From NCBI GenBank assembly GCA_050015275.1, contig JBEKBS010000009.1, positions 719 through 64,718 on the forward strand: a stretch of 64,000 nt of DNA, written 5' to 3'. Made by a program: the position numbers and the translations under genes. Positions 1,034-43,471 of this stretch are shown piece after piece. The stretch's first letter is position 1. Each line of letters starts with the position of its first letter. Source of the stretch: Candidatus Aminicenantales bacterium. GTDB lineage: Bacteria > Acidobacteriota > Aminicenantia > Aminicenantales > Saccharicenantaceae. Below the pieces are notes generated by a model. The model did no database searches. It was not told the DNA's origin and saw nothing but the letters and a program-made list of their open reading frames with translations.

Positions 1034-3676
1034 ATGAAACGAACAACTTTTCGAATCCTCCTGCCGGGGCTTGCATCGTTAGCTGCCTGGGCCGCGGTTG
1101 TGTCGGCACCCGCGTCGAACGACACCGTTCGGTCCGCTATTGCCGTCCAGGCGCCGGGTTCAATGGCCCAGAGCTCAGAGGACGCCGAGTGGGGCTATCT
1201 TAAACTCTGGTACCGGCGTCCGGCCGCGGTCTGGAATGAAGCGCTTCCGGTCGGAAATGGGCGCCTCGGGGCTATGATCTACGGCGGCGTCAACGAAGAG
1301 TGCGTTCAGCTTAACGAATCCACCGTTTGGACCGGCGGCCCCTATGACCCCTCGAACCCGGAGGCCCTGAAGGCCTTGCCGGAGGTTCGGCGGCTCGTTT
1401 TCGCCGGGAAATTCCGTGAGGCGCAGGAACTCTTCGGCCGGAAAATGATGGCCCGTCCGCCCAACCAGCAGAAATATCAGCCTCTGGCGGACCTCCAGAT
1501 TAGTTACGCCGGACTGGGGCGTCCGACCGACCAAAACAAGCAACTCACGGGCTATAGGCGGGAACTCGACTTGGACACGGCCGTCGCCGCCGTACGCTAC
1601 ACAATTGGCGGCGTGACTTACACACGTGAAGTCTTTGCGAGCCCAGCCGACGAGGTCATTGTAGTGCGTTTCGCGGCCTCCAAGCCCGGCAACTTGTCCT
1701 TCAGCGTTCGCTTGACGGGACGGACGAACGGGCTCACCATGGACGATACGTACGCTCGGATCACGGAGCTCGACGGCAGATCCGTGGAATCTCCGGGCGA
1801 CGAACATTGGGAGAGCAACGGTCTCGGTTCGGACTGCCTCCGGTTGCGGGGAAGGACGGCCACATACCTCGGGATCAAGGGCCGCGTCGAGTACGAGGCC
1901 ATGGCCAAGGTCATCCCCGAAGGCGGCCGTGTCCAACTCGACGGCGATGTAGCGACCGTTAGCTGCGCCGATGCCGCAACCATCCTGGTCACGGCGGCCA
2001 CGAACTTCCTGAGTTTTAAGGACCTTGGTGGCGACCCGGCCCCCCTGGCCGAAAGCAGTCTCGCGGCCGCCGTCACGAAGTCCTATGAAAAACTCAGGGA
2101 AGATCATGTCGCCGGACACCGGCGGCTCTTCCGCCGGGCCGCACTGGTCCTGCCGCGCACTGATGCGTCGGGCCTTCCCACCGACGAGCGCCTGCGGCGG
2201 TTCCAGGCCCGGGGCGATGACCCGGCGTTGGCCGCGCTCTATTTTCAATTCGGCCGCTATCTTCTCATTTCGAGCTCTCGCCCGGGCGGGGTTCCGGCCA
2301 ACCTCCAGGGTCTCTGGAATGATACGATGAATCCGGCCTGGGGCAGCAAATACACGACCAACATCAACCTCGAGATGAACTACTGGCCCGCCGAAGTCGC
2401 GAACCTCGATGAGTGTTTCGAGCCGTTCGTCCGGCTCGTCGAAGGCCTGGCCGAAACGGGGGCGAAAATCGCGAAAACGCATTACGGCGCCCGCGGTTGG
2501 ATGCTCCACCACAACACCGACATCTGGTTGGCCGCCGCTCCGGTCAACGGTCCGTACGTGGGGACCTGGCCGGCGGGCGGGGCTTGGCTATGCAACGAGC
2601 TCTGGGACCGCTATCTCTTCACTGGGGCGGCGGATTACCTGCGCCGGATTTACCCGCTTCTCAAGGGAGCGGCCGAGTTCTTTCTCGATACGCTCGTTGA
2701 GGAGCCACGCCACAAGTGGCTCGTGACCTGCCCCTCGAGCTCCCCCGAAAACTGGCCCCATTATCCCGGCAACGTGAGCTTCACCGACGAGGTGCGCAAA
2801 GTCAAGGTCTTCGCCACGATTGCCGCGGGTCCGGCCCTGGACATGGAGCTATTGCGGGACCTATTCAGCGCCTATGCCGACGCTTCTCGCACGCTCGGCC
2901 TGGACGCAGCGTTCCGGAGCGCCGTCCTTCGTGCCCGGGATCGCCTGGCCCCTCTTCAGATTGGCCGCTACGGCCAGCTTCAGGAGTGGCTCGACGACTG
3001 GGACGATCCCAAGGACACGAACCGGCACCTTTCCCATCTCTATGCTCTCTACCCCGGTCGTGCGATCGGACTCGACGCGACAGCCCGGCTCGCGGCCGCG
3101 GCCCGGATGTCCTTAACCATGCGCGGCGAGGGAGGCATGGGTTGGTCGATTGCCTGGAAGACGGCCCTGTGGGCCAGGCTGCGCGATGCGGAGAAGGCGT
3201 ACGCCTCGTTGCGTAGTCTCCTTCAACCGCAGGATATGTCCGAAGGCGATCCGAGAAAGGGCGGCACGCTTCCGAACCTTATGGACATCGGTCCGCCCTT
3301 CCAGATTGACGGGAACTTCGGCGGGACGGCTGGAATCGCGGAGATGCTGCTCCAATCTCAGAACGACACGATTGACTTTCTTCCCGCGCTTCCCGCGGCT
3401 TGGCCCGATGGTGTTCTTCGCGGCTTCGCCGCCCGCGGTGGCTTCGAAGTGGACATCGCTTGGAAAGCCGGCCGCTTGACGTCCGGGTCGATTCAGTCGC
3501 GGCTGGGCAAGCCATGCCGCCTCAGAGTCCGATGGCCGGTGCAAGTGACCCTCAGTGACGGCATGCCCGTAAAGACGGTTGAAAGCGGGGAGGACATGTT
3601 GACCTTTCCGACGGAACGGGGCGAGACCTATCATGTCGCTCCCGCTGGCGCCGGCGAACCGGAAGCTCTAAAATAA
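1034..3676 (+). CDS. Glycoside hydrolase family 95 alpha-L-fucosidase (secreted)
   Basis: N-terminal signal peptide. GH95 hallmark motifs are present: [19 protein letters not shown]...[20 protein letters not shown]...[15 protein letters not shown] and [16 protein letters not shown]. The product is 880 aa. Confidence 0.9.
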
Positions 3677-3688
3677 AGGAGATCGAAG

Positions 3689-4705
3689 ATGAGACAGGCC
3701 GTGATGACCTCTCCCGGCGAGATTGAGTTCAGGGACGTGCCCGTTCCCAAGCCCGGCCCCGACGAAGTCCTCATCCGCATCAAGACGATCGGGGTCTGCG
3801 GATCCGACGTTCACGTCCGGCACGGACGTCACCCGTTCACCTCTTACCCTGTCGTCCAGGGCCACGAATTCTCGGGCGTCGTCGAGTCCGTCGGAAAACG
3901 AGTCCGTAACATCCGGCCTGGGCTGAAAGTCACGGCCACTCCCCAGATCGTTTGCGGCCGCTGCGGCCCCTGCCGGCGCGGGGATTACCATATCTGCGAC
4001 GTCCTCAAGGTCCAGGGCTTTCAGGCCCCCGGCTGCGCCCAGGACTTCTTTGTCACCGAGGCGGCGAAGATCATCCCCCTCCCCGCGTCGTTCAGCTTCG
4101 AACAGGGGGCTCTCGTCGAGCCGGTGGCGGTCGGGGTCCACGCGGTCGCCCGGGCCGGAAGGATCGGCGGGACGAACGTCGTCGTCCTCGGCGCCGGCCC
4201 CATCGGCAATCTCCTCGGGCAAGTGGCCCGGGCCGCGGGCGCGAACGTTCTGATCAACGACATCAGCGATTTCCGCCTCGAGATCGCCCGGCGGTCCGGG
4301 CTCCGGTCGGTATCCAATGCGAAGGCGGAGAGTCTCGAGGAGGCCGTGGTGCGCGTCTTCGGCCGTAAGGGCTTTGACACGGCCTTTGAATGCGCCGGCG
4401 CCGAGGCCGCCATCAATCTGGCCATTGGAGCCATCCGGAAAGGCGGGACGATCGTCGCCGTCGGAGTCTACGGCGAACGACCGCGGGTCAATATGGGATT
4501 TCTCCAGGACCGGGAGCTCGTCCTGAAGGGGACTCTGATGTACCAGAGGAGGGATTTCATCAAGGCGGTCAGGCTGATCACGGACCGGCGCGTCATCACG
4601 AAGCCCCTGGAGACCGTTCATTTCCCCTTCGAAAGCTATCGGAGCGCCTATGACTTCATCGACCAGGAAGGGGACAGATCCATGAAGGTCTTTATCGACC
4701 TTTGA
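3689..4705 (+). CDS. Zn-dependent medium-chain alcohol/polyol dehydrogenase (MDR family; sorbitol or L-idonate dehydrogenase-like)
   Basis: Motifs GVCGSDVH, GHEFSGVV and CGRCGPCRRGDYHICD give catalytic and structural Zn sites. A GxGxxG Rossmann motif (VVLGAGPIGN) is present. The gene starts 13 bp after the GH95 stop. Confidence 0.85.
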   Translation: MRQAVMTSPGEIEFRDVPVPKPGPDEVLIRIKTIGVCGSDVHVRHGRHPFTSYPVVQGHEFSGVVESVGKRVRNIRPGLKVTATPQIVCGRCGPCRRGDYHICDVLKVQGFQAPGCAQDFFVTEAAKIIPLPASFSFEQGALVEPVAVGVHAVARAGRIGGTNVVVLGAGPIGNLLGQVARAAGANVLINDISDFRLEIARRSGLRSVSNAKAESLEEAVVRVFGRKGFDTAFECAGAEAAINLAIGAIRKGGTIVAVGVYGERPRVNMGFLQDRELVLKGTLMYQRRDFIKAVRLITDRRVITKPLETVHFPFESYRSAYDFIDQEGDRSMKVFIDL

Positions 4706-27538: not shown

Positions 27539-27754
27539 TAAGCAACCTAGCGGCCCAGGAGATCCACCGCGGCATATTGGAGCTAGCCGCCGGCCTTCAC
27601 CGGATCGGCAGCGCGGAGATGCCAATTTTCCGGGACCTCATCCCTTTTCCTTACACCCATATTTAAGGGGGGGGGCAGGCCAGACCCGTTACGTTGACAG
27701 TCCCCGGTCCCTGTGGTATATCGAGGGTCGCTTCGCGACATGGGCGAGGCCTTC

Positions 27755-28537
27755 ATGAATCCAAAAGCATTAAAGATCGTTTCTCTCGAGGGACGGGTGG
27801 CCGTCATTTCCGGCGCCGCTTCTGGAATCGGGCTGGGCTCAGCCCGCCGGCTGGCAGAATTCGGGGCTGGGGTCGTCCTTCTTGACATCCACCGGGAGAA
27901 AGGAACCGCGGCCGCCGAAGGAATCGCCGCCCGAGGCGGCCGGGCGCTCTTCATCTCTTGCGACGTCCGCTCGGAGGCCGATTGCCGCCGGGCCGTAGAG
28001 GAGACGATCCGCGAGTTCGGTTGCATCGATATCCTCTTCAATAATGCCGGCGTCATTGTACGTAAGAACGCCATCGAGCTCAGGGAAGAGGAGTGGGACC
28101 TTACGCTCGACGTCATGCTCAAAGGGACCTATCTCCTGTCGCATCATGTCATCCCCCATATGATCGCCGCCGGAGGGGGGAGCATCATCAACATGGGCTC
28201 CGGCTGGGCCCTCAAAGGCGGCCCTGACGCGGTCGCCTACTGTGCAGCCAAGGGCGGAATCCTCAACATCACCCGGGCCATGGCCATCGACCATGGCCGC
28301 CACGGCATCCGGGTCAACTGCGTCTGCCCGGGCGACATCGACACGCCCTTGCTCCGGAGCGAATGCGCCCAGCTCGGTCAGGAGGAGGAGGCGTTCATGG
28401 CAGCCGCGGCCCTGCGGCCTCTGGCTCGGGTGGGGACGCCCGAGGATGTGGCCAACGCCGTCCTCTTTTTCGCGAGCGATCTTTCGAAATGGGTGACCGG
28501 CGCCTTCCTCGTCGTGGATGGCGGCGGCATCGCCTAG
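27755..28537 (+). CDS. Short-chain dehydrogenase/reductase (classical SDR), second tandem copy
   Basis: Motifs ISGAASGIG and NNAG are present, with YCAAKGG. An alternative GTG start lies at 27713. Confidence 0.85.
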   Translation: MNPKALKIVSLEGRVAVISGAASGIGLGSARRLAEFGAGVVLLDIHREKGTAAAEGIAARGGRALFISCDVRSEADCRRAVEETIREFGCIDILFNNAGVIVRKNAIELREEEWDLTLDVMLKGTYLLSHHVIPHMIAAGGGSIINMGSGWALKGGPDAVAYCAAKGGILNITRAMAIDHGRHGIRVNCVCPGDIDTPLLRSECAQLGQEEEAFMAAAALRPLARVGTPEDVANAVLFFASDLSKWVTGAFLVVDGGGIA

Positions 28538-36815: not shown

Positions 36816-37751
36816 ATGGCCTTTCTCAAGGCCATGGACGCATTCATCACGGCGCGGGATCTCACCAAGAAATACGGGGAGTTGACCGCCGTCGACCGGA
36901 TCTCCTTCGAGATCCGGGAGGGCGAATGCTTCGGCTTCCTGGGGCCGAACGGCGCCGGCAAGACCTCGACGGTCAAGATCATCCATTGCGTCTCGCCGTT
37001 GACCTCCGGCACTCTGAGCGTCGACGGCATGCCCGCCCATACCGGCAACCGCGCCATCAAGCAGATGACCGGCGTCATCCCCCAGGAGATCACCCTCGAC
37101 CCCGACCTCACGGTGACCGAGAACATGACCATCTTCGCCCGGTTCTTCGACATCCCCCGGCGCGAGGCCCGGCCCCGGATCGACGAACTCCTGAAGTTCG
37201 TCGAGCTCGAGGGCAAGCGGACGAGCAAGATCGACGAGCTGTCGACCGGCATGAAACGGCGGCTGCTCGTCGCCCGGGCCCTCCTCAACCGCCCGAAGCT
37301 CATCGTCGCCGACGAGCCGACGACGGGGCTCGACCCCCAGGCCCGGCACATGATCTGGCAGCGGCTCCGGCAGCTCAAGACCCAGGGAGCAACGCTCATC
37401 CTGACGACTCAGTACATGGAGGAAGCCCAGCAGCTCTGCGACAGGATCGTCGTCATGCACCAGGGGAAGATCCTTCGTGAAGGTCTCCCCCTGAGGCTCA
37501 TCGAGGAGGAGATCGGCCGGGAGGTCGTCGAGATCCGGATCGGCCGGGAGGAGGACGACCGGCTCATCCGCGAGCTCGGGTCCTTCGCCTGCGGCCATGA
37601 GCGCGTCGGCGACACGCTCTTCTTCTACTGCCGCGACGGCCACGACATCATGCGCAAGCTCGTCGAGCTCGACCTCCCCAACACCTGGACCCGGCCGGCG
37701 ACGCTCGAGGACGTCTTCCTGAAGCTCACGGGCAGGGGGCTCATCGAATGA
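36816..37751 (+). CDS. ABC-2 type exporter ATP-binding protein (NodI/DrrA-like)
   Basis: Walker A GPNGAGKTS, signature LSTGMKRRL and Walker B LIVADEPTTGLD are present. The 311-aa product has the C-terminal extension typical of the NodI family. Confidence 0.85.
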   Translation: MAFLKAMDAFITARDLTKKYGELTAVDRISFEIREGECFGFLGPNGAGKTSTVKIIHCVSPLTSGTLSVDGMPAHTGNRAIKQMTGVIPQEITLDPDLTVTENMTIFARFFDIPRREARPRIDELLKFVELEGKRTSKIDELSTGMKRRLLVARALLNRPKLIVADEPTTGLDPQARHMIWQRLRQLKTQGATLILTTQYMEEAQQLCDRIVVMHQGKILREGLPLRLIEEEIGREVVEIRIGREEDDRLIRELGSFACGHERVGDTLFFYCRDGHDIMRKLVELDLPNTWTRPATLEDVFLKLTGRGLIE

Positions 37752-38515
37752 ACCTGTCCTACAGGATCTACCACGTCTTCGTCCGCAATCTCTACTCGTA
37801 CAAGCGGTTCGTCGTCTCGACGTTCCTCGTCAGCCTCATCGAGCCGCTGTTCTACCTCATCACTTTCGGCATCGGCATGGGCGCCTACATGGGCCTGTTC
37901 GGCGGCAAGCCCTATCTTTATTTTCTCGTGCCCGGAGTCCTCGTCTCGTCGGTCATGATGTCGTCGACGTTCGAGTGCCTGTACGGGACGTTCGTCAAGA
38001 TGGTCCACGAGAAGCTCTACGAATCCCTGATCGCGACGCCGGTCTCCGCGGAGGACGCCGTGGCCGGCGACATCGCCTGGGGGGCTGCCCGCGGCCTCAT
38101 CAGCGGTGTCCTGATGATGCTCGTCTCCATGGCCATGGGCATTCTCCCCGTCTCGATCCCGAGCGTCCTCATCATCCTCGTCCTGATGGTCTTCGTCGGC
38201 GTCCTCTTCGCCTCGCTGGCCATGATCGTGACCTCCGTCTCGCCGAGCTTCGACTTCTTCAATTACTACACGGAGCTCGTCATCACGCCCATGCTCTTCT
38301 TCTCGGGAGTTTTCTTCCCCCTGGACAAGTTCCCGGCCTGGATGCAGAAGCTCTCCGAGTTCATGCCGCTGACCCACGCCGTCAAGATCTCGCGGGCCGT
38401 CTTCTCGGGCGAATACCACGCCAGGTACATCTGGAATTTTCTGGTCATCTTCGTCCTGGAAACCGTCGCCTTCGTCGTCGGCATCCGGATGATGAAAAAG
38501 AGGCTCATCAAGTGA
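37748..38515 (+). CDS. ABC-2 type transporter permease (NodJ-like)
   Basis: An ATGA overlap joins it to the ATPase. Six TM helices carry the ABC-2 family pattern. Confidence 0.85.
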   Translation: MNLSYRIYHVFVRNLYSYKRFVVSTFLVSLIEPLFYLITFGIGMGAYMGLFGGKPYLYFLVPGVLVSSVMMSSTFECLYGTFVKMVHEKLYESLIATPVSAEDAVAGDIAWGAARGLISGVLMMLVSMAMGILPVSIPSVLIILVLMVFVGVLFASLAMIVTSVSPSFDFFNYYTELVITPMLFFSGVFFPLDKFPAWMQKLSEFMPLTHAVKISRAVFSGEYHARYIWNFLVIFVLETVAFVVGIRMMKKRLIK

Positions 38516-38794
38516 TGAACTGAGAGCCCGGCATCCTCCGGGCTTCCATCCCCGCCATTCTCCAAGCTGACCATCGGAGCCCGACTTTGCCCGGCGTCGG
38601 CGGCCGGGAGGGGGGTGATATCCCCTTGTCCCGGGGGGACCGCTTGGGTTCCCCTTTCCCCGTTTGGGGGGAGGGAAATATCCCCAGCGGATTCACTCTT
38701 AAAGGGGATTCCGGGGATTCCGGGGCGCCGACATAATGACTATGAGAGATGGAGGCGTGCAGAACTGCCGCCATCCGTCGGAACGGAGGTTAAT

Positions 38795-39424
38795 ATGAGA
38801 AAACTGACTGCGGCCCTGGTGGTCGGCGCCTTTGCCTGCCTGCTCGCGCTGCCCGGTCCCGCGGCTGCCAACGTGCAGTTCGGTATCAAGGGCGGGGGCA
38901 ACATGGCGACGATCACGGGCGCGGACGCCCAGGACATCAACGGGACCCTGAAGGACAAGGTCGGGTTCGTGGCCGGCGTTTTTCTGGCCTTCAACATGGG
39001 GAGCGTCTTCACCCTCCAGCTCGAGGGCCTCTACACGATGAAAGGGGTCGACACGACCTACACCGACGTGGACACGACCTACTCTGACAAGCTTTACGCG
39101 AATTACATCGAAGTCCCGCTGCTCTTTAAGTTCCGGATCCCGACCCCGCTCGTTTCGCCGTTCGTGTTCTTCGGACCGGCCGTCGGATTCAAGCTGAACG
39201 AAAAAGTCGTGGAGAACGGCCAGACCGTTCCCCTGACCCAGGCGCTTTTCAAGAACAACGACTACGGCGCCATCTTCGGCGGCGGCCTGAATATCGGCAG
39301 CCATTTCCAGATCGACGTCCGATACAGCATGGGCCTGGAGAAGGTCATTGCCACCGTCCAGGGACAGACCCCTCTCGATATCAAGAATGGGGTCTGGTCG
39401 GGGACCATCGGCATCGCATTCTAG
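38795..39424 (+). CDS. Small outer-membrane beta-barrel protein (OmpW/OmpA-like porin family)
   Basis: SD GGAGG precedes ATG 38795. A signal peptide ends in AAA-N. Alternating amphipathic beta-strands end in the C-terminal ...GTIGIAF (terminal Phe). Confidence 0.7.
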   Translation: MRKLTAALVVGAFACLLALPGPAAANVQFGIKGGGNMATITGADAQDINGTLKDKVGFVAGVFLAFNMGSVFTLQLEGLYTMKGVDTTYTDVDTTYSDKLYANYIEVPLLFKFRIPTPLVSPFVFFGPAVGFKLNEKVVENGQTVPLTQALFKNNDYGAIFGGGLNIGSHFQIDVRYSMGLEKVIATVQGQTPLDIKNGVWSGTIGIAF

Positions 39425-39444: not shown

Positions 39445-39487
39445 AAAAACGGGGCGCCTCGCGCAGCGGGGCGCCTTATTTTTTCTC
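39445..39487 (+). terminator. Rho-independent terminator after the OMP gene
   Basis: AAAAAACGGGGCGCCTCGCGCAGCGGGGCGCC forms a GC hairpin and is followed by TTATTTTTTCT. Confidence 0.45.
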
Positions 39488-41277: not shown

Positions 41278-41518
41278 GATGAAACCTCCCGGCCAAATCA
41301 TACCCGAATCGCTGTCCTTTTACAAAGGAACGTTGAGGAGGATAGCCTCCATTCTCATGGAGGTTGAGCTCGGGGGATTCCCTATTGAAGTTATCTTGTC
41401 TTTTGATGGGCCGTCTGGTATAACCGCTGACAGTGGGATATCGAGCCGATTCCGGACCCGCCCTGCGCCCCGTATCTTCCGGAATATCGTCCTGGTCCCG
41501 GAGTCCAAGGAGTCCGTC

Positions 41519-43471
41519 ATGACAAAAAAACTGATCTCCGCGGCGCTTCTCGTTGGCATGATCGCGGTCTTCGCCTCCGCGCAGGTCCGGGTCGAGTTCA
41601 GGAAGACCGGGGAAACATACACGCTCTACGGCAGCGGGCAGCCGGTCGGGGCCCTGGTGCCTTTCAAGGAGGCGGGTTTCGCCGCCACGGACGGCGTCCT
41701 GGAGGTCCAGCCCGGGCTCTTCGAGTGGACGCGGACCTTCACTTACAACGGCGAGGGTTATGTCCGGCCGGCCCGGCTGACGATGGAGCTCGAAACGTTC
41801 TATGCGTCGAGATACAGTCTCATCCCCGCCGTGTCGTACAACGGAAACCCGTGGGGCAAGGGCTTGGAGCCCAAGGGTTTCAGAAAGGACGGACAGCCCT
41901 GGACCTTCGCCTATCACAGGGTCTCCGTCCCGGGCGCGACCTATTCCGAGTCCGAGGCCTGGTCGGTGGCTCTCTTCAGCCGGCCGGGGCAGCTCGTCTG
42001 CGGCTTCTCCTGCTCCCTCGACCCGGGCCAGGACAGGACCGTCCACCGTCTCGTCTGGCCGGAGGAAGAGACGCCCGTTGTCTACGCGGCCCGCGACCTT
42101 TATGCGGACGCGTATCATGAGGACTTCCGCATGTCCCGCGGCCAAACGGTCACTCTCAAGGCGTGGATCGTCGCCGGCCCCGTGACGGTGCCGAAGCACG
42201 GCTGGCACGCTCTCTTGGACGCCGCCTGGCAGCTCAGCTCCCACCCCGTCTCGCCGCGGTTCGAGCCCGAAGACCTCTGGGAGCTCGGCCTCGAGTTCGC
42301 CAAAGACAGCCTCTGGGCCGAGGAACAGTCCTTCAAGGGCTTCTCCATCGGCCTCAGCTGGGACGGCGCGAAATGGGCCCAGCGCCCGTCCTGGAAATAC
42401 GAGATCGGCTGGGCGGGCCAGAACGCCTCGCTCTCGAACTCTCTCCTTCAGGACTACCTGAAGACTGGTGACCGGACGTCCCTCGATCTCGGGATGAAAT
42501 GCCTCGACGCCTGGGCCCGCAACGCGCGGCTCAAGAACGGCCTCTTCCGCTGCCATTTTGATTATCTGATCGGCCTCGGCGACCCGAAGACGGAGGTCCA
42601 GGACGCCTGCAACCTGGGCCAGGCGGCCCAGGGCTTCTTCGAGGCCTGGGACCTGGCCGCGAAATGCAAGCTCCCGAGGCCGGAGTACCGCGAGATCGCC
42701 GTCGCCATCTGTGATTTCGCGCTCAAGGCCATGCAGCAGGACGGCCGGATCGGCAAGGCCTGGACGAATGACGGCCGGCCCGTCGACCCCGAGGGGACGA
42801 CCGGCGCCTACCTCATCCCGCCCCTCCTCACGGCCTACCGTCTCACCCACAAGCCGCCGTATCTCGAAGGCGCGGAGAGGGCCTTCGCCTTCTACATCGG
42901 GGATTTCATCAAGAACGGCTTCACCACGGCCGGCGCCCTGGACACGGATTGCATCGACAAGGAGTCCGCGACGCCCCTGCTCAAGGCCGCCTTGGACCTC
43001 TACGAGCTCACGGGAAAGGAAACGTACCTACGGTGGGCCGAGGATGTCTCCTATTACGTCGCCTCCTGGCAGTGGCACTACACTGTGCCTTATCCGGCGG
43101 GGACCGTCCTCAACGGGCTCGGCTATGACACCTTGGGCGGGAGCGCCGTCTCGACACAGCATCACCACCAGGACCCCTTCGCCGTGATCATCGTCAACGA
43201 TTGGATCAAGCTGGCCGCCCTGACCGGGAAAACCGTCTGGCGGGATCGGGCCCTGGCCGCCTGGGCCAACGGCACGATCGGGATCTCGAACGGTGACCTC
43301 GTCGTCCTCGGCAAGAAACGGCCGGCCGGAAGCCAGGACGAGGGGTTCCTGCACACCCGTTGGCTCTACCCCTCGAGCGTGAGCCAGTGGCTCGTCGCCT
43401 GGCCGACGGCGTTCCGGCTGGAGACGCTGCGCCTGGCCCCGAACTGGCGGGTTTTCGAAAAGAAGCAATAG
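41519..43471 (+). CDS. Secreted hypothetical protein with an N-terminal beta-sandwich and a C-terminal Trp-rich alpha-helical domain (possible (alpha/alpha)6 glycosidase or lyase)
   Basis: SD AAGGAG precedes ATG 41519, followed by a signal peptide. No named family is recognised. The upstream part of the ORF-track ORF is non-coding. Confidence 0.55.
   Translation: MTKKLISAALLVGMIAVFASAQVRVEFRKTGETYTLYGSGQPVGALVPFKEAGFAATDGVLEVQPGLFEWTRTFTYNGEGYVRPARLTMELETFYASRYSLIPAVSYNGNPWGKGLEPKGFRKDGQPWTFAYHRVSVPGATYSESEAWSVALFSRPGQLVCGFSCSLDPGQDRTVHRLVWPEEETPVVYAARDLYADAYHEDFRMSRGQTVTLKAWIVAGPVTVPKHGWHALLDAAWQLSSHPVSPRFEPEDLWELGLEFAKDSLWAEEQSFKGFSIGLSWDGAKWAQRPSWKYEIGWAGQNASLSNSLLQDYLKTGDRTSLDLGMKCLDAWARNARLKNGLFRCHFDYLIGLGDPKTEVQDACNLGQAAQGFFEAWDLAAKCKLPRPEYREIAVAICDFALKAMQQDGRIGKAWTNDGRPVDPEGTTGAYLIPPLLTAYRLTHKPPYLEGAERAFAFYIGDFIKNGFTTAGALDTDCIDKESATPLLKAALDLYELTGKETYLRWAEDVSYYVASWQWHYTVPYPAGTVLNGLGYDTLGGSAVSTQHHHQDPFAVIIVNDWIKLAALTGKTVWRDRALAAWANGTIGISNGDLVVLGKKRPAGSQDEGFLHTRWLYPSSVSQWLVAWPTAFRLETLRLAPNWRVFEKKQ

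Follow-up and report, generated by a model that had tools for sequence, protein, structure and literature searches.

Genetic setting and composition of the G-run cluster

The whole G-run cluster is contained in a 279-nt spacer between two genes on the plus strand of the window, the stretch of 64,000 nucleotides that was analyzed. On its 5' side, this spacer is bounded by the gene for an ABC-2 type transporter permease (37748-38515; PF01061, E 4.1e-24), which is not part of the element itself. On its 3' side, it is followed by a gene (38795-39424) for a protein of 209 amino acids with a signal peptide and an OMP_b-brl_2 domain (PF13568, E 8.7e-22), which bears out the assignment of an outer-membrane β-barrel protein (OMP) made in an earlier, sequence-only reading of this DNA. 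Directly 3' of the permease stop codon, the plus-strand sequence reads as a hairpin (AGCCCGG-CATCCT-CCGGGCT, 38525-38544), a putative terminator-like element that is kept in the relative L004 but has no T-run. The OMP gene, in turn, is directly followed by a predicted intrinsic terminator, consisting of a 12-bp GC-rich stem and a T-run (39451-39487, plus strand). Given this strong 12-bp terminator, the OMP gene is probably monocistronic and forms its own transcription unit. Its ribosome-binding site is a Shine-Dalgarno sequence, GGAGG (38785-38789, plus strand), that is near-invariant in the alignment of related loci. Two reading frames extending into the spacer were considered and rejected. 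An N-terminal extension of the OMP from GTG 38615 (60 in-frame codons) was put down to chance; in relatives, the in-frame open stretch 5' of the OMP ATG varies from 3 to at least 66 codons, and tblastn matches to the extension came from the nearest relatives only and fell in several frames. Likewise, a minus-strand frame of 88 codons (38508-38774) had tblastn matches in the nearest relatives only, again in several frames. No conserved open reading frame across the region was found among the relatives' upstream frames or by tblastn.

The three G6 runs reported by the sequence-only reading are indeed present on the plus strand, at 38610-38615 (tract 1), 38633-38638 (tract 2) and 38666-38671 (tract 3). 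In the window as a whole, GGGGGG is depleted, with 42 matches compared to 134 ± 17 in dinucleotide shuffles, and only 31 G/C runs of at least 6 nt occur in the entire 64 kb. The presence of three such runs within 62 bp therefore represents a genuine cluster, for which our Poisson estimate from these counts, allowing for all window positions, gives a chance probability of about 0.005. The longest homopolymer of the window is a G9 run elsewhere (27667-27675), located 19 nt 5' of a canonical promoter-like site, TTGACA (27695-27700)-17-TATATC (context 27650-27725), and followed by a gene for a short-chain dehydrogenase (27713-28537; PF13561). Judged by its length, it is a better candidate for slippage than the G6 tracts upstream of the OMP gene.

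Tract 1 belongs to a distal block, GGGAGGGGGGTGATATCCCC (38606-38625, plus strand), which also carries a GGTGA sequence that is the counterpart of a G(A/G)TGA block in other lineages. This block is the first copy of a 20-nt direct repeat (D1), whose second copy, GGGGGGAGGGAAATATCCCC (38666-38685), is 80% identical and lies 60 nt away. The repeated G-run block described earlier can thus be recognized as two GGGG..ATATCCCC blocks spaced by 60 nt, whereas the proposed consensus (T/A)GA(T/A)ATATCCCC is only approximate. Tract 2 and its pyrimidine partner GGTTCCCCT make up a hairpin-capable segment with a predicted 9-bp stem (38633-38655). Further downstream, tract 3 is included in the C-run/G-run unit CCCCGTTTGGGGGG (38659-38671), whose columns rank among the best conserved ones of the 69 aligned sequences, followed by a second C-run block, ATATCCCC (38678-38685), with conserved columns that read (A/T)(T/C)CCCC in relatives. 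The next block, GATTCA (38690-38695), is the counterpart of GAATCC(T/C)C, the form found in most relatives. There, it constitutes the 5' arm of an inverted repeat; in the window, this arm is degenerate.

The promoter-proximal end of the cluster is formed by the anchor sequence GGGGAT, which overlaps the putative -35 hexamer TTCCGG (38709-38714; combined span 38704-38714, plus strand). The tandem of two GGGGATTCC copies noticed in the sequence-only reading is exact and followed by GGGG (38704-38725). However, instead of lying upstream of the promoter, as had been assumed, it overlaps both the putative -35 hexamer and the -35/-10 spacer. With the -35 hexamer at 38709-38714, the first copy represents the conserved GGGGAT together with the -35 element. 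The second copy (38713-38721, plus strand) falls into the unconserved columns of the 17-nt spacer (38715-38731) and has counterparts in no lineages but the three closest ones (L006, L019 and L022), where it carries substitutions; every lineage having the tandem has two copies of the 9-nt unit. Searches with the words ATATCCCC and GGGGATTCC and with an nhmmer profile of the module did not reveal a second comparable site in the 64-kb window. One additional exact match to GGGGATTCC (41373-41381), about 20 nt 5' of a promoter-like TTGTCT-17-TATAAC site ahead of a gene start at 41519, was judged coincidental.

A conserved module linked to the OMP gene

An exact-protein look-up identified the same OMP on contigs of three metagenome assemblies, whose 6.6-kb neighborhoods differ from the window by 0-1 SNP and whose intergenic regions are base-for-base identical to it. 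Look-ups with both the OMP and the permease returned only these near-identical contigs. The three assemblies essentially represent one widespread strain and therefore hold little evolutionary information, although they still show the same consensus tract lengths after independent assembly. Orthologs of the OMP were obtained from a scan of species-representative genomes, with 15 loci at 54-94% amino-acid identity, most of them labeled Candidatus Aminicenantes, and from a metagenome scan, with 80 further loci. These loci comprised 71 distinct upstream regions. All but two of them contain an anchor of the form G[GA][GC]GAT, mostly GGGGAT and in a few cases GGCGAT or GAGGAT, and the resulting set of 69 sequences, which align nearly gap-free over the core, was used for promoter statistics and the consensus alignment.

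Except for a few low-GC or paralogous loci, these regions have a common layout. Its 5' half consists of a distal block, a C-run/G-run, (A/T)(T/C)CCCC, GAATCC(T/C)C and GGGGAT, in this order. Its 3' half starts with a TTGCCG-type hexamer abutting GGGGAT, followed by 17 unconserved nucleotides and an nAnAnT hexamer; a stem-loop comes about 8 nt further on, and then GGAGG and the ATG start codon. The distal block reads G(A/G)TGA-N16-TCACC in large clades and GGGGGTGA ... GGGGGA(C/G) in the clade of the window, where it carries tracts 1 and 2; this distal half of the module is conserved only within the window's clade, with other clades having the GrTGA-N16-TCACC form. Pairwise identity averages 0.64 over the upstream core (C-run to GGGGATTGC), compared to 0.39 over the -35/-10 spacer and 0.66 at the third codon positions of the OMP gene. 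Lineages with a divergently oriented upstream gene (L011, L012, L032, L035, L036, L057, L061, L074, L084 and L087) have an extra conserved block, ATGATGACAGAA..CCGG.CCGAATCAAG, on the 5' side of the module, which precedes the GrTGA block by some 30-60 nt and contains a promoter-like ATGACA-17-CAAG(A/G)T pattern. The N-terminus of the divergent gene product is, by eye only, MaoC-dehydratase-like.

The gene upstream of the module varies, with four contexts represented among the relatives, namely the ABC-2 permease gene, a PpiC/SurA-like gene, a divergent gene and an OMP paralog, which has a terminator of its own. The nhmmer profile of the module has a single match in the 64-kb window (38636-38714, E 3e-13), and its other matches, in a search of about 100 loci, all adjoin OMP genes. 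A dispersed intergenic repeat of the REP or MITE type would be expected in multiple copies, and none beyond this one match was found in the window. Judged from the window and these loci, the module is therefore not a repeat, nor is it a feature of promoters in general. Since it moves with the OMP gene and its profile is this specific, it can be regarded as the gene's own control region. In L015, the module precedes the second of two tandem paralogs, which is 61% identical to the OMP of the window. Within this tandem array (2526-4075), the full module (3293-3371) is present only in front of the second copy (3449-4075), and the first copy has a shortened version, GATGAGAAATCC..GGCGATTTGCC-18-CATAAT. 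Tandem OMP paralogs were also noted in L009, L010 and L013, upstream of about position 2700.

The two hexamers at the 3' end of the layout have the signature of a putative σ70-type promoter. They are separated by exactly 17 nt in 59 of the 69 sequences, and their key positions are strongly conserved, including A2 (68/69), A4 (66/69) and T6 (68/69) of the -10 hexamer as well as T1 (69/69), T2 (57/69), G3 (55/69) and C4 (63/69) of the -35 hexamer. The first position of the -10 hexamer is C in 40 sequences, and the distance from its end to the ATG is 42-69 nt (median 54). In the window, the pattern corresponds to TTCCGG (38709-38714), a 17-nt spacer and a predicted -10 hexamer CATAAT (38732-38737, plus strand), recognized by its spacing and the nAnAnT conservation. 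Its -35 hexamer is poor, matching TTGACA at only two of six positions, and a scan for consensus sites made no promoter call at this place. Within this genome, σ70-like sites are enriched overall, with 11 sites compared to 3.8 ± 2.2 expected. Transcription would most likely start near 38744, as judged from the position of the hexamers. A second promoter 5' of the GrTGA block was considered and is plausible only in the clade with the divergent gene, the other clades lacking the -10 A2. Hairpins in the -35/-10 spacer were attributed to chance, with a best arm of 3.94 nt compared to 3.78 nt in shuffles. A search of the literature for OMP promoters of Aminicenantes yielded nothing relevant.

Between the predicted start site and the Shine-Dalgarno sequence, the leader can fold into a stem-loop (38748-38779, plus strand) with a ΔG of -20.1 kcal/mol and a z-score of -3.27; the family mean z-score for folding of the 5' untranslated region is -1.5. 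A hairpin is found at the corresponding place in relatives, too, with stems of at least four other sequences, as exemplified by GGACGCG/CGCGTCC, GTCGA/TCGAC and CACCGTGC/GCACGGTG. From its predicted folding, this element resembles the leader structure of ompA and seems to be conserved.

Candidate operator and competing explanations

The arrangement of the conserved blocks suggests that the G/C-run cluster comprises the promoter and upstream regulatory DNA of the monocistronic OMP gene, that it is probably bound by protein and that this arrangement is conserved across Candidatus Aminicenantes, an interpretation to which we assign a probability of roughly 60%. Binding by a protein had been mentioned as an alternative in the sequence-only reading and is now the favored explanation. 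The blocks keep their positions in 69 lineages, at an identity well above that of the adjacent promoter spacer, and follow the OMP gene through all four upstream contexts. In addition, most lineages have an inverted repeat around -43 that abuts the -35 hexamer. The best perfect inverted repeat in the interval from -64 to -33 is centered between -42 and -44.5 in 53 of 68 distinct sequences, with a mean arm length of 5.3 nt, compared to 4.0 nt in shuffles. Its arms read AATCC(CC)/(GG)GGATT, TCCCC/GGGGA or ATCCC/GGGAT, with GGGGAT(T) as the promoter-proximal arm. In the low-GC relative L018, both arms have changed symmetrically to give AATCACC-N5-GGTGATT, abutting TTGTCA-17-TATGAA. A fixed-position inverted repeat, as expected for a dimeric operator, is thus found across the orthologs. 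It is weak in the window itself as well as in L006 and L019, whose 5' arm is degenerate. The sub-clade of the window, with its degenerate 5' arm, is also the sole one whose promoter spacer carries GGGGATT(C/G)C as an additional copy.

In the model we favor, transcription would initiate from the σ70-type promoter near 38744 and produce an mRNA with a leader of about 50 nt that contains the stem-loop and the GGAGG ribosome-binding site. The upstream G- and C-runs would then act on initiation as conserved blocks of duplex DNA, comprising GGGGAT, which touches the -35 hexamer, GATTCA, ATATCCCC, CCCC-N4-GGGGGG and the two distal G6 blocks. Most likely, these blocks are bound by a regulator, contacted by RNA polymerase or both, and regulation could be positive or negative. 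In most lineages, GGGGAT(T) would form the proximal arm of the inverted repeat at about -43, and a center close to this position is typical of class-II activator sites. To our knowledge, the AATCCCC/GGGGATT half-sites do not resemble any known operator. No conserved neighboring regulator gene was seen in the flanks of the locus, which differ between lineages.

The promoter may also function without a dedicated regulator, with GGGGAT and the G/C blocks providing an extended -35 or UP-like recognition surface that is read by the housekeeping polymerase or an alternative σ70-family factor driving an abundant OMP gene. This possibility, which we consider rather unlikely but the strongest of the alternatives, is consistent with the near-invariance of GGGGAT and its direct contact with the -35 hexamer, the systematic departure from TATAAT at the first -10 position, which is mostly C rather than T (40/69), and the restriction of the motif to a single gene in the sequence examined. 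However, conservation extends to about -110, and known polymerase contacts stop short of this position. Moreover, the inverted-repeat symmetry at -43 suggests a dimeric binder rather than a σ or α contact, and other promoters in the window look canonical, such as TTGACA-17-TATGAT.

Alternatively, the blocks could act at the RNA level, with the alternating C- and G-runs forming alternative hairpins that control expression of the OMP gene from within a long leader or an intercistronic element. A role of this kind, which would depend on transcription from further upstream or on read-through from the preceding gene, is possible but unlikely, slightly more so than the recognition surface. In many lineages, the preceding gene is indeed co-oriented and ends only 25-35 nt upstream. 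The 140-nt stretch from 38596 to 38735 has a predicted folding energy of -83.3 kcal/mol (z -3.97), the stem of the tract 2 hairpin is preserved in near relatives that differ in its inner sequence, and the pairs proposed by RNAalifold are kept in 92.3% of the cells, with 35 two-sided changes compared to 6.2 in shuffles (0/500). In these nested pairs, the C-run is matched with the GGGG of GGGGAT and the G-run with the TCCTC block, so that all eight pairs connect G-runs with C/T-runs. However, G-runs can pair with any pyrimidine run, and 82% of the cells remain paired when the partners are slid by -1. The two-sided changes trace back to one or two clade-level events, and the consensus structure over the 69 sequences reaches only -3.0 kcal/mol with its 8 pairs. 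Over the family as a whole, the region 5' of the -35 hexamer does not fold better than dinucleotide shuffles (mean z -0.85 and -0.61 for the sense strand, -0.36 and -0.34 for the antisense strand). In the window, the antisense strand of the 140-nt stretch folds well, too (z -3.11), and the long closing stem behind the low z-score (38596-38609/38719-38732) is not kept in L006 or L019. No Rfam 15 family was matched at E ≤ 1 by the window site or the 12 related loci searched; sub-threshold matches in the window (sul1 at 17 bits, a miRNA and CRISPR repeats) were discarded as noise. The clade with a divergent upstream gene, furthermore, leaves little room for an upstream promoter, and the nAnAnT hexamer with its 17-nt spacing is best read as a promoter 3' of the blocks.

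Since there is a pairing signal, albeit a weak one, and the window's copy is strongly self-complementary, we leave a small probability, just below that of the RNA role, to the idea that the C-run/G-run module is a lineage-specific switch operating through strand-specific structure, either as alternative hairpins in a transcript crossing the region or as a cruciform or other non-B DNA next to the -35 hexamer. If true, such a switch would make expression of the major OMP of Aminicenantes depend on a physical or metabolic signal.

The main idea of the sequence-only reading was that the G-tracts mediate phase variation. In this scenario, slipped-strand changes in tract length would alter the spacing or phasing between an upstream site and the promoter and thereby switch or tune OMP synthesis, in a phase-variable or rheostat-like manner. 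The presence of three homopolymers in front of a surface-protein gene fits this notion, as do single-nucleotide steps in tract 1, which is G4, G5 and G6 in L026, L007 and L023, respectively, and G6 in the window but G7 in L004. Nevertheless, our analysis lends it no support, and we consider it improbable. All three tracts are only 6 nt long, and contingency tracts of G or C usually need about 8 nt or more for frequent slippage. They are located about 73-134 nt upstream of the predicted start site, and none of them falls into the -35/-10 spacer or the OMP reading frame. Comparing strains, as had been proposed, had a mixed outcome, with the three assemblies being identical over the intergenic region but amounting to one strain and tract 1 ranging from G4 to G8 among relatives, where its 3' end is fixed in 13 of 16 near relatives. 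Tract 2 varies from G4 to G7, and its inner stem sequence varies as well. Exact length is therefore not critical in tracts 1 and 2, and their variation would appear to be ordinary homopolymer behavior; some of the length differences, moreover, come from assemblies of uncertain homopolymer accuracy. Tract 3 is the best conserved of the three (G6 in 12 of 16 near relatives). Both this tract and the run adjoining the -35 hexamer, which is G4 in 38 sequences, G5 in 9, G6 in 7 and G7 in 10 with an unchanged 17-nt geometry, vary by substitution at fixed spacing, and the 9-nt tandem is constant at two copies. Aminicenantes, finally, are free-living organisms of sediment and peat, and we know of no obvious host-driven selection acting on them. 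The G-runs are probably sequence-constrained motifs rather than hypermutable tracts, and their presence before a gene for a surface protein does not necessarily imply phase variation.

The formation of a G-quadruplex by the G-runs, or of an i-motif by the C-runs, that modulates transcription from the promoter-upstream DNA is the least probable of all explanations, with G4Hunter scores of 1.6 in two 25-nt windows (38593-38618 and 38701-38728) opposed by equally high scores at some 30 further sites of the window, the absence of a G3+N1-7 motif between 38400 and 38900 even when loops of up to 12 nt are allowed, the interleaving of complementary C-runs that favors duplexes or hairpins, and the lack of conservation of a four-run arrangement in relatives.

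Significance and comparison with known systems

The Aminicenantes are abundant, uncultured bacteria of sediments and peat whose transcription control is almost unstudied. The promoter architecture described here, drawn from about 70 lineages, provides a first picture, based on data, of the -35 and -10 elements they use. In addition, the conserved module represents a defined candidate operator that may help to find a regulator, and the OMP promoter itself, which serves an abundant envelope protein, is likely to be both strong and portable.

Homopolymers of G or C are also found 5' of surface-protein genes in established phase-variable systems, such as the poly-G tract of Neisseria porA, the poly-C tract of opc, the poly-C tract of Bordetella fim and the poly-G tracts of the Treponema pallidum tpr genes. 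In those promoters, the tract usually has at least 8 nt, varies within a strain and is located either inside the -35/-10 spacer or in the stretch that separates an activator site from the -10 hexamer. Here, by contrast, the tracts are G6, lie upstream of the -35 hexamer, do not differ among the three assemblies and, within the core, keep their position while their length changes by substitution. Downstream of the cluster, the predicted leader of about 50 nt, with a stable hairpin between the putative start site and the ribosome-binding site whose structure is kept while its sequence changes between clades, is reminiscent of the stabilizing stem-loop of ompA. This likeness concerns only the part downstream of the G-run cluster and is predicted from the sequence.

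Turning to the upstream region, the E. coli ompF and ompC promoters, which are controlled by OmpR, likewise serve OMP genes and combine a weak -35 hexamer with several conserved boxes between about -40 and -110. However, the boxes recognized by OmpR are rich in A/T and form direct repeats in tandem, with a 10-bp register, whereas the blocks described here consist of irregularly spaced G/C runs that combine direct with inverted symmetry, and no two-component system is linked to the locus. Class II activator promoters, with CRP or FNR sites at -41.5, provide another parallel, given the inverted repeat at -42 to -44.5 that touches the -35 hexamer and the imperfect match of this hexamer to the consensus. 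Differences lie in the half-sites, which are AATCCCC/GGGGATT rather than TGTGA/TCACA or TTGAT/ATCAA, in the conserved blocks that reach to about -110 to -135, and in the degenerate 5' arm of the window's copy, with all positions counted from a predicted start site. In other respects, the G/C-run promoter module is an ordinary element of a familiar kind.
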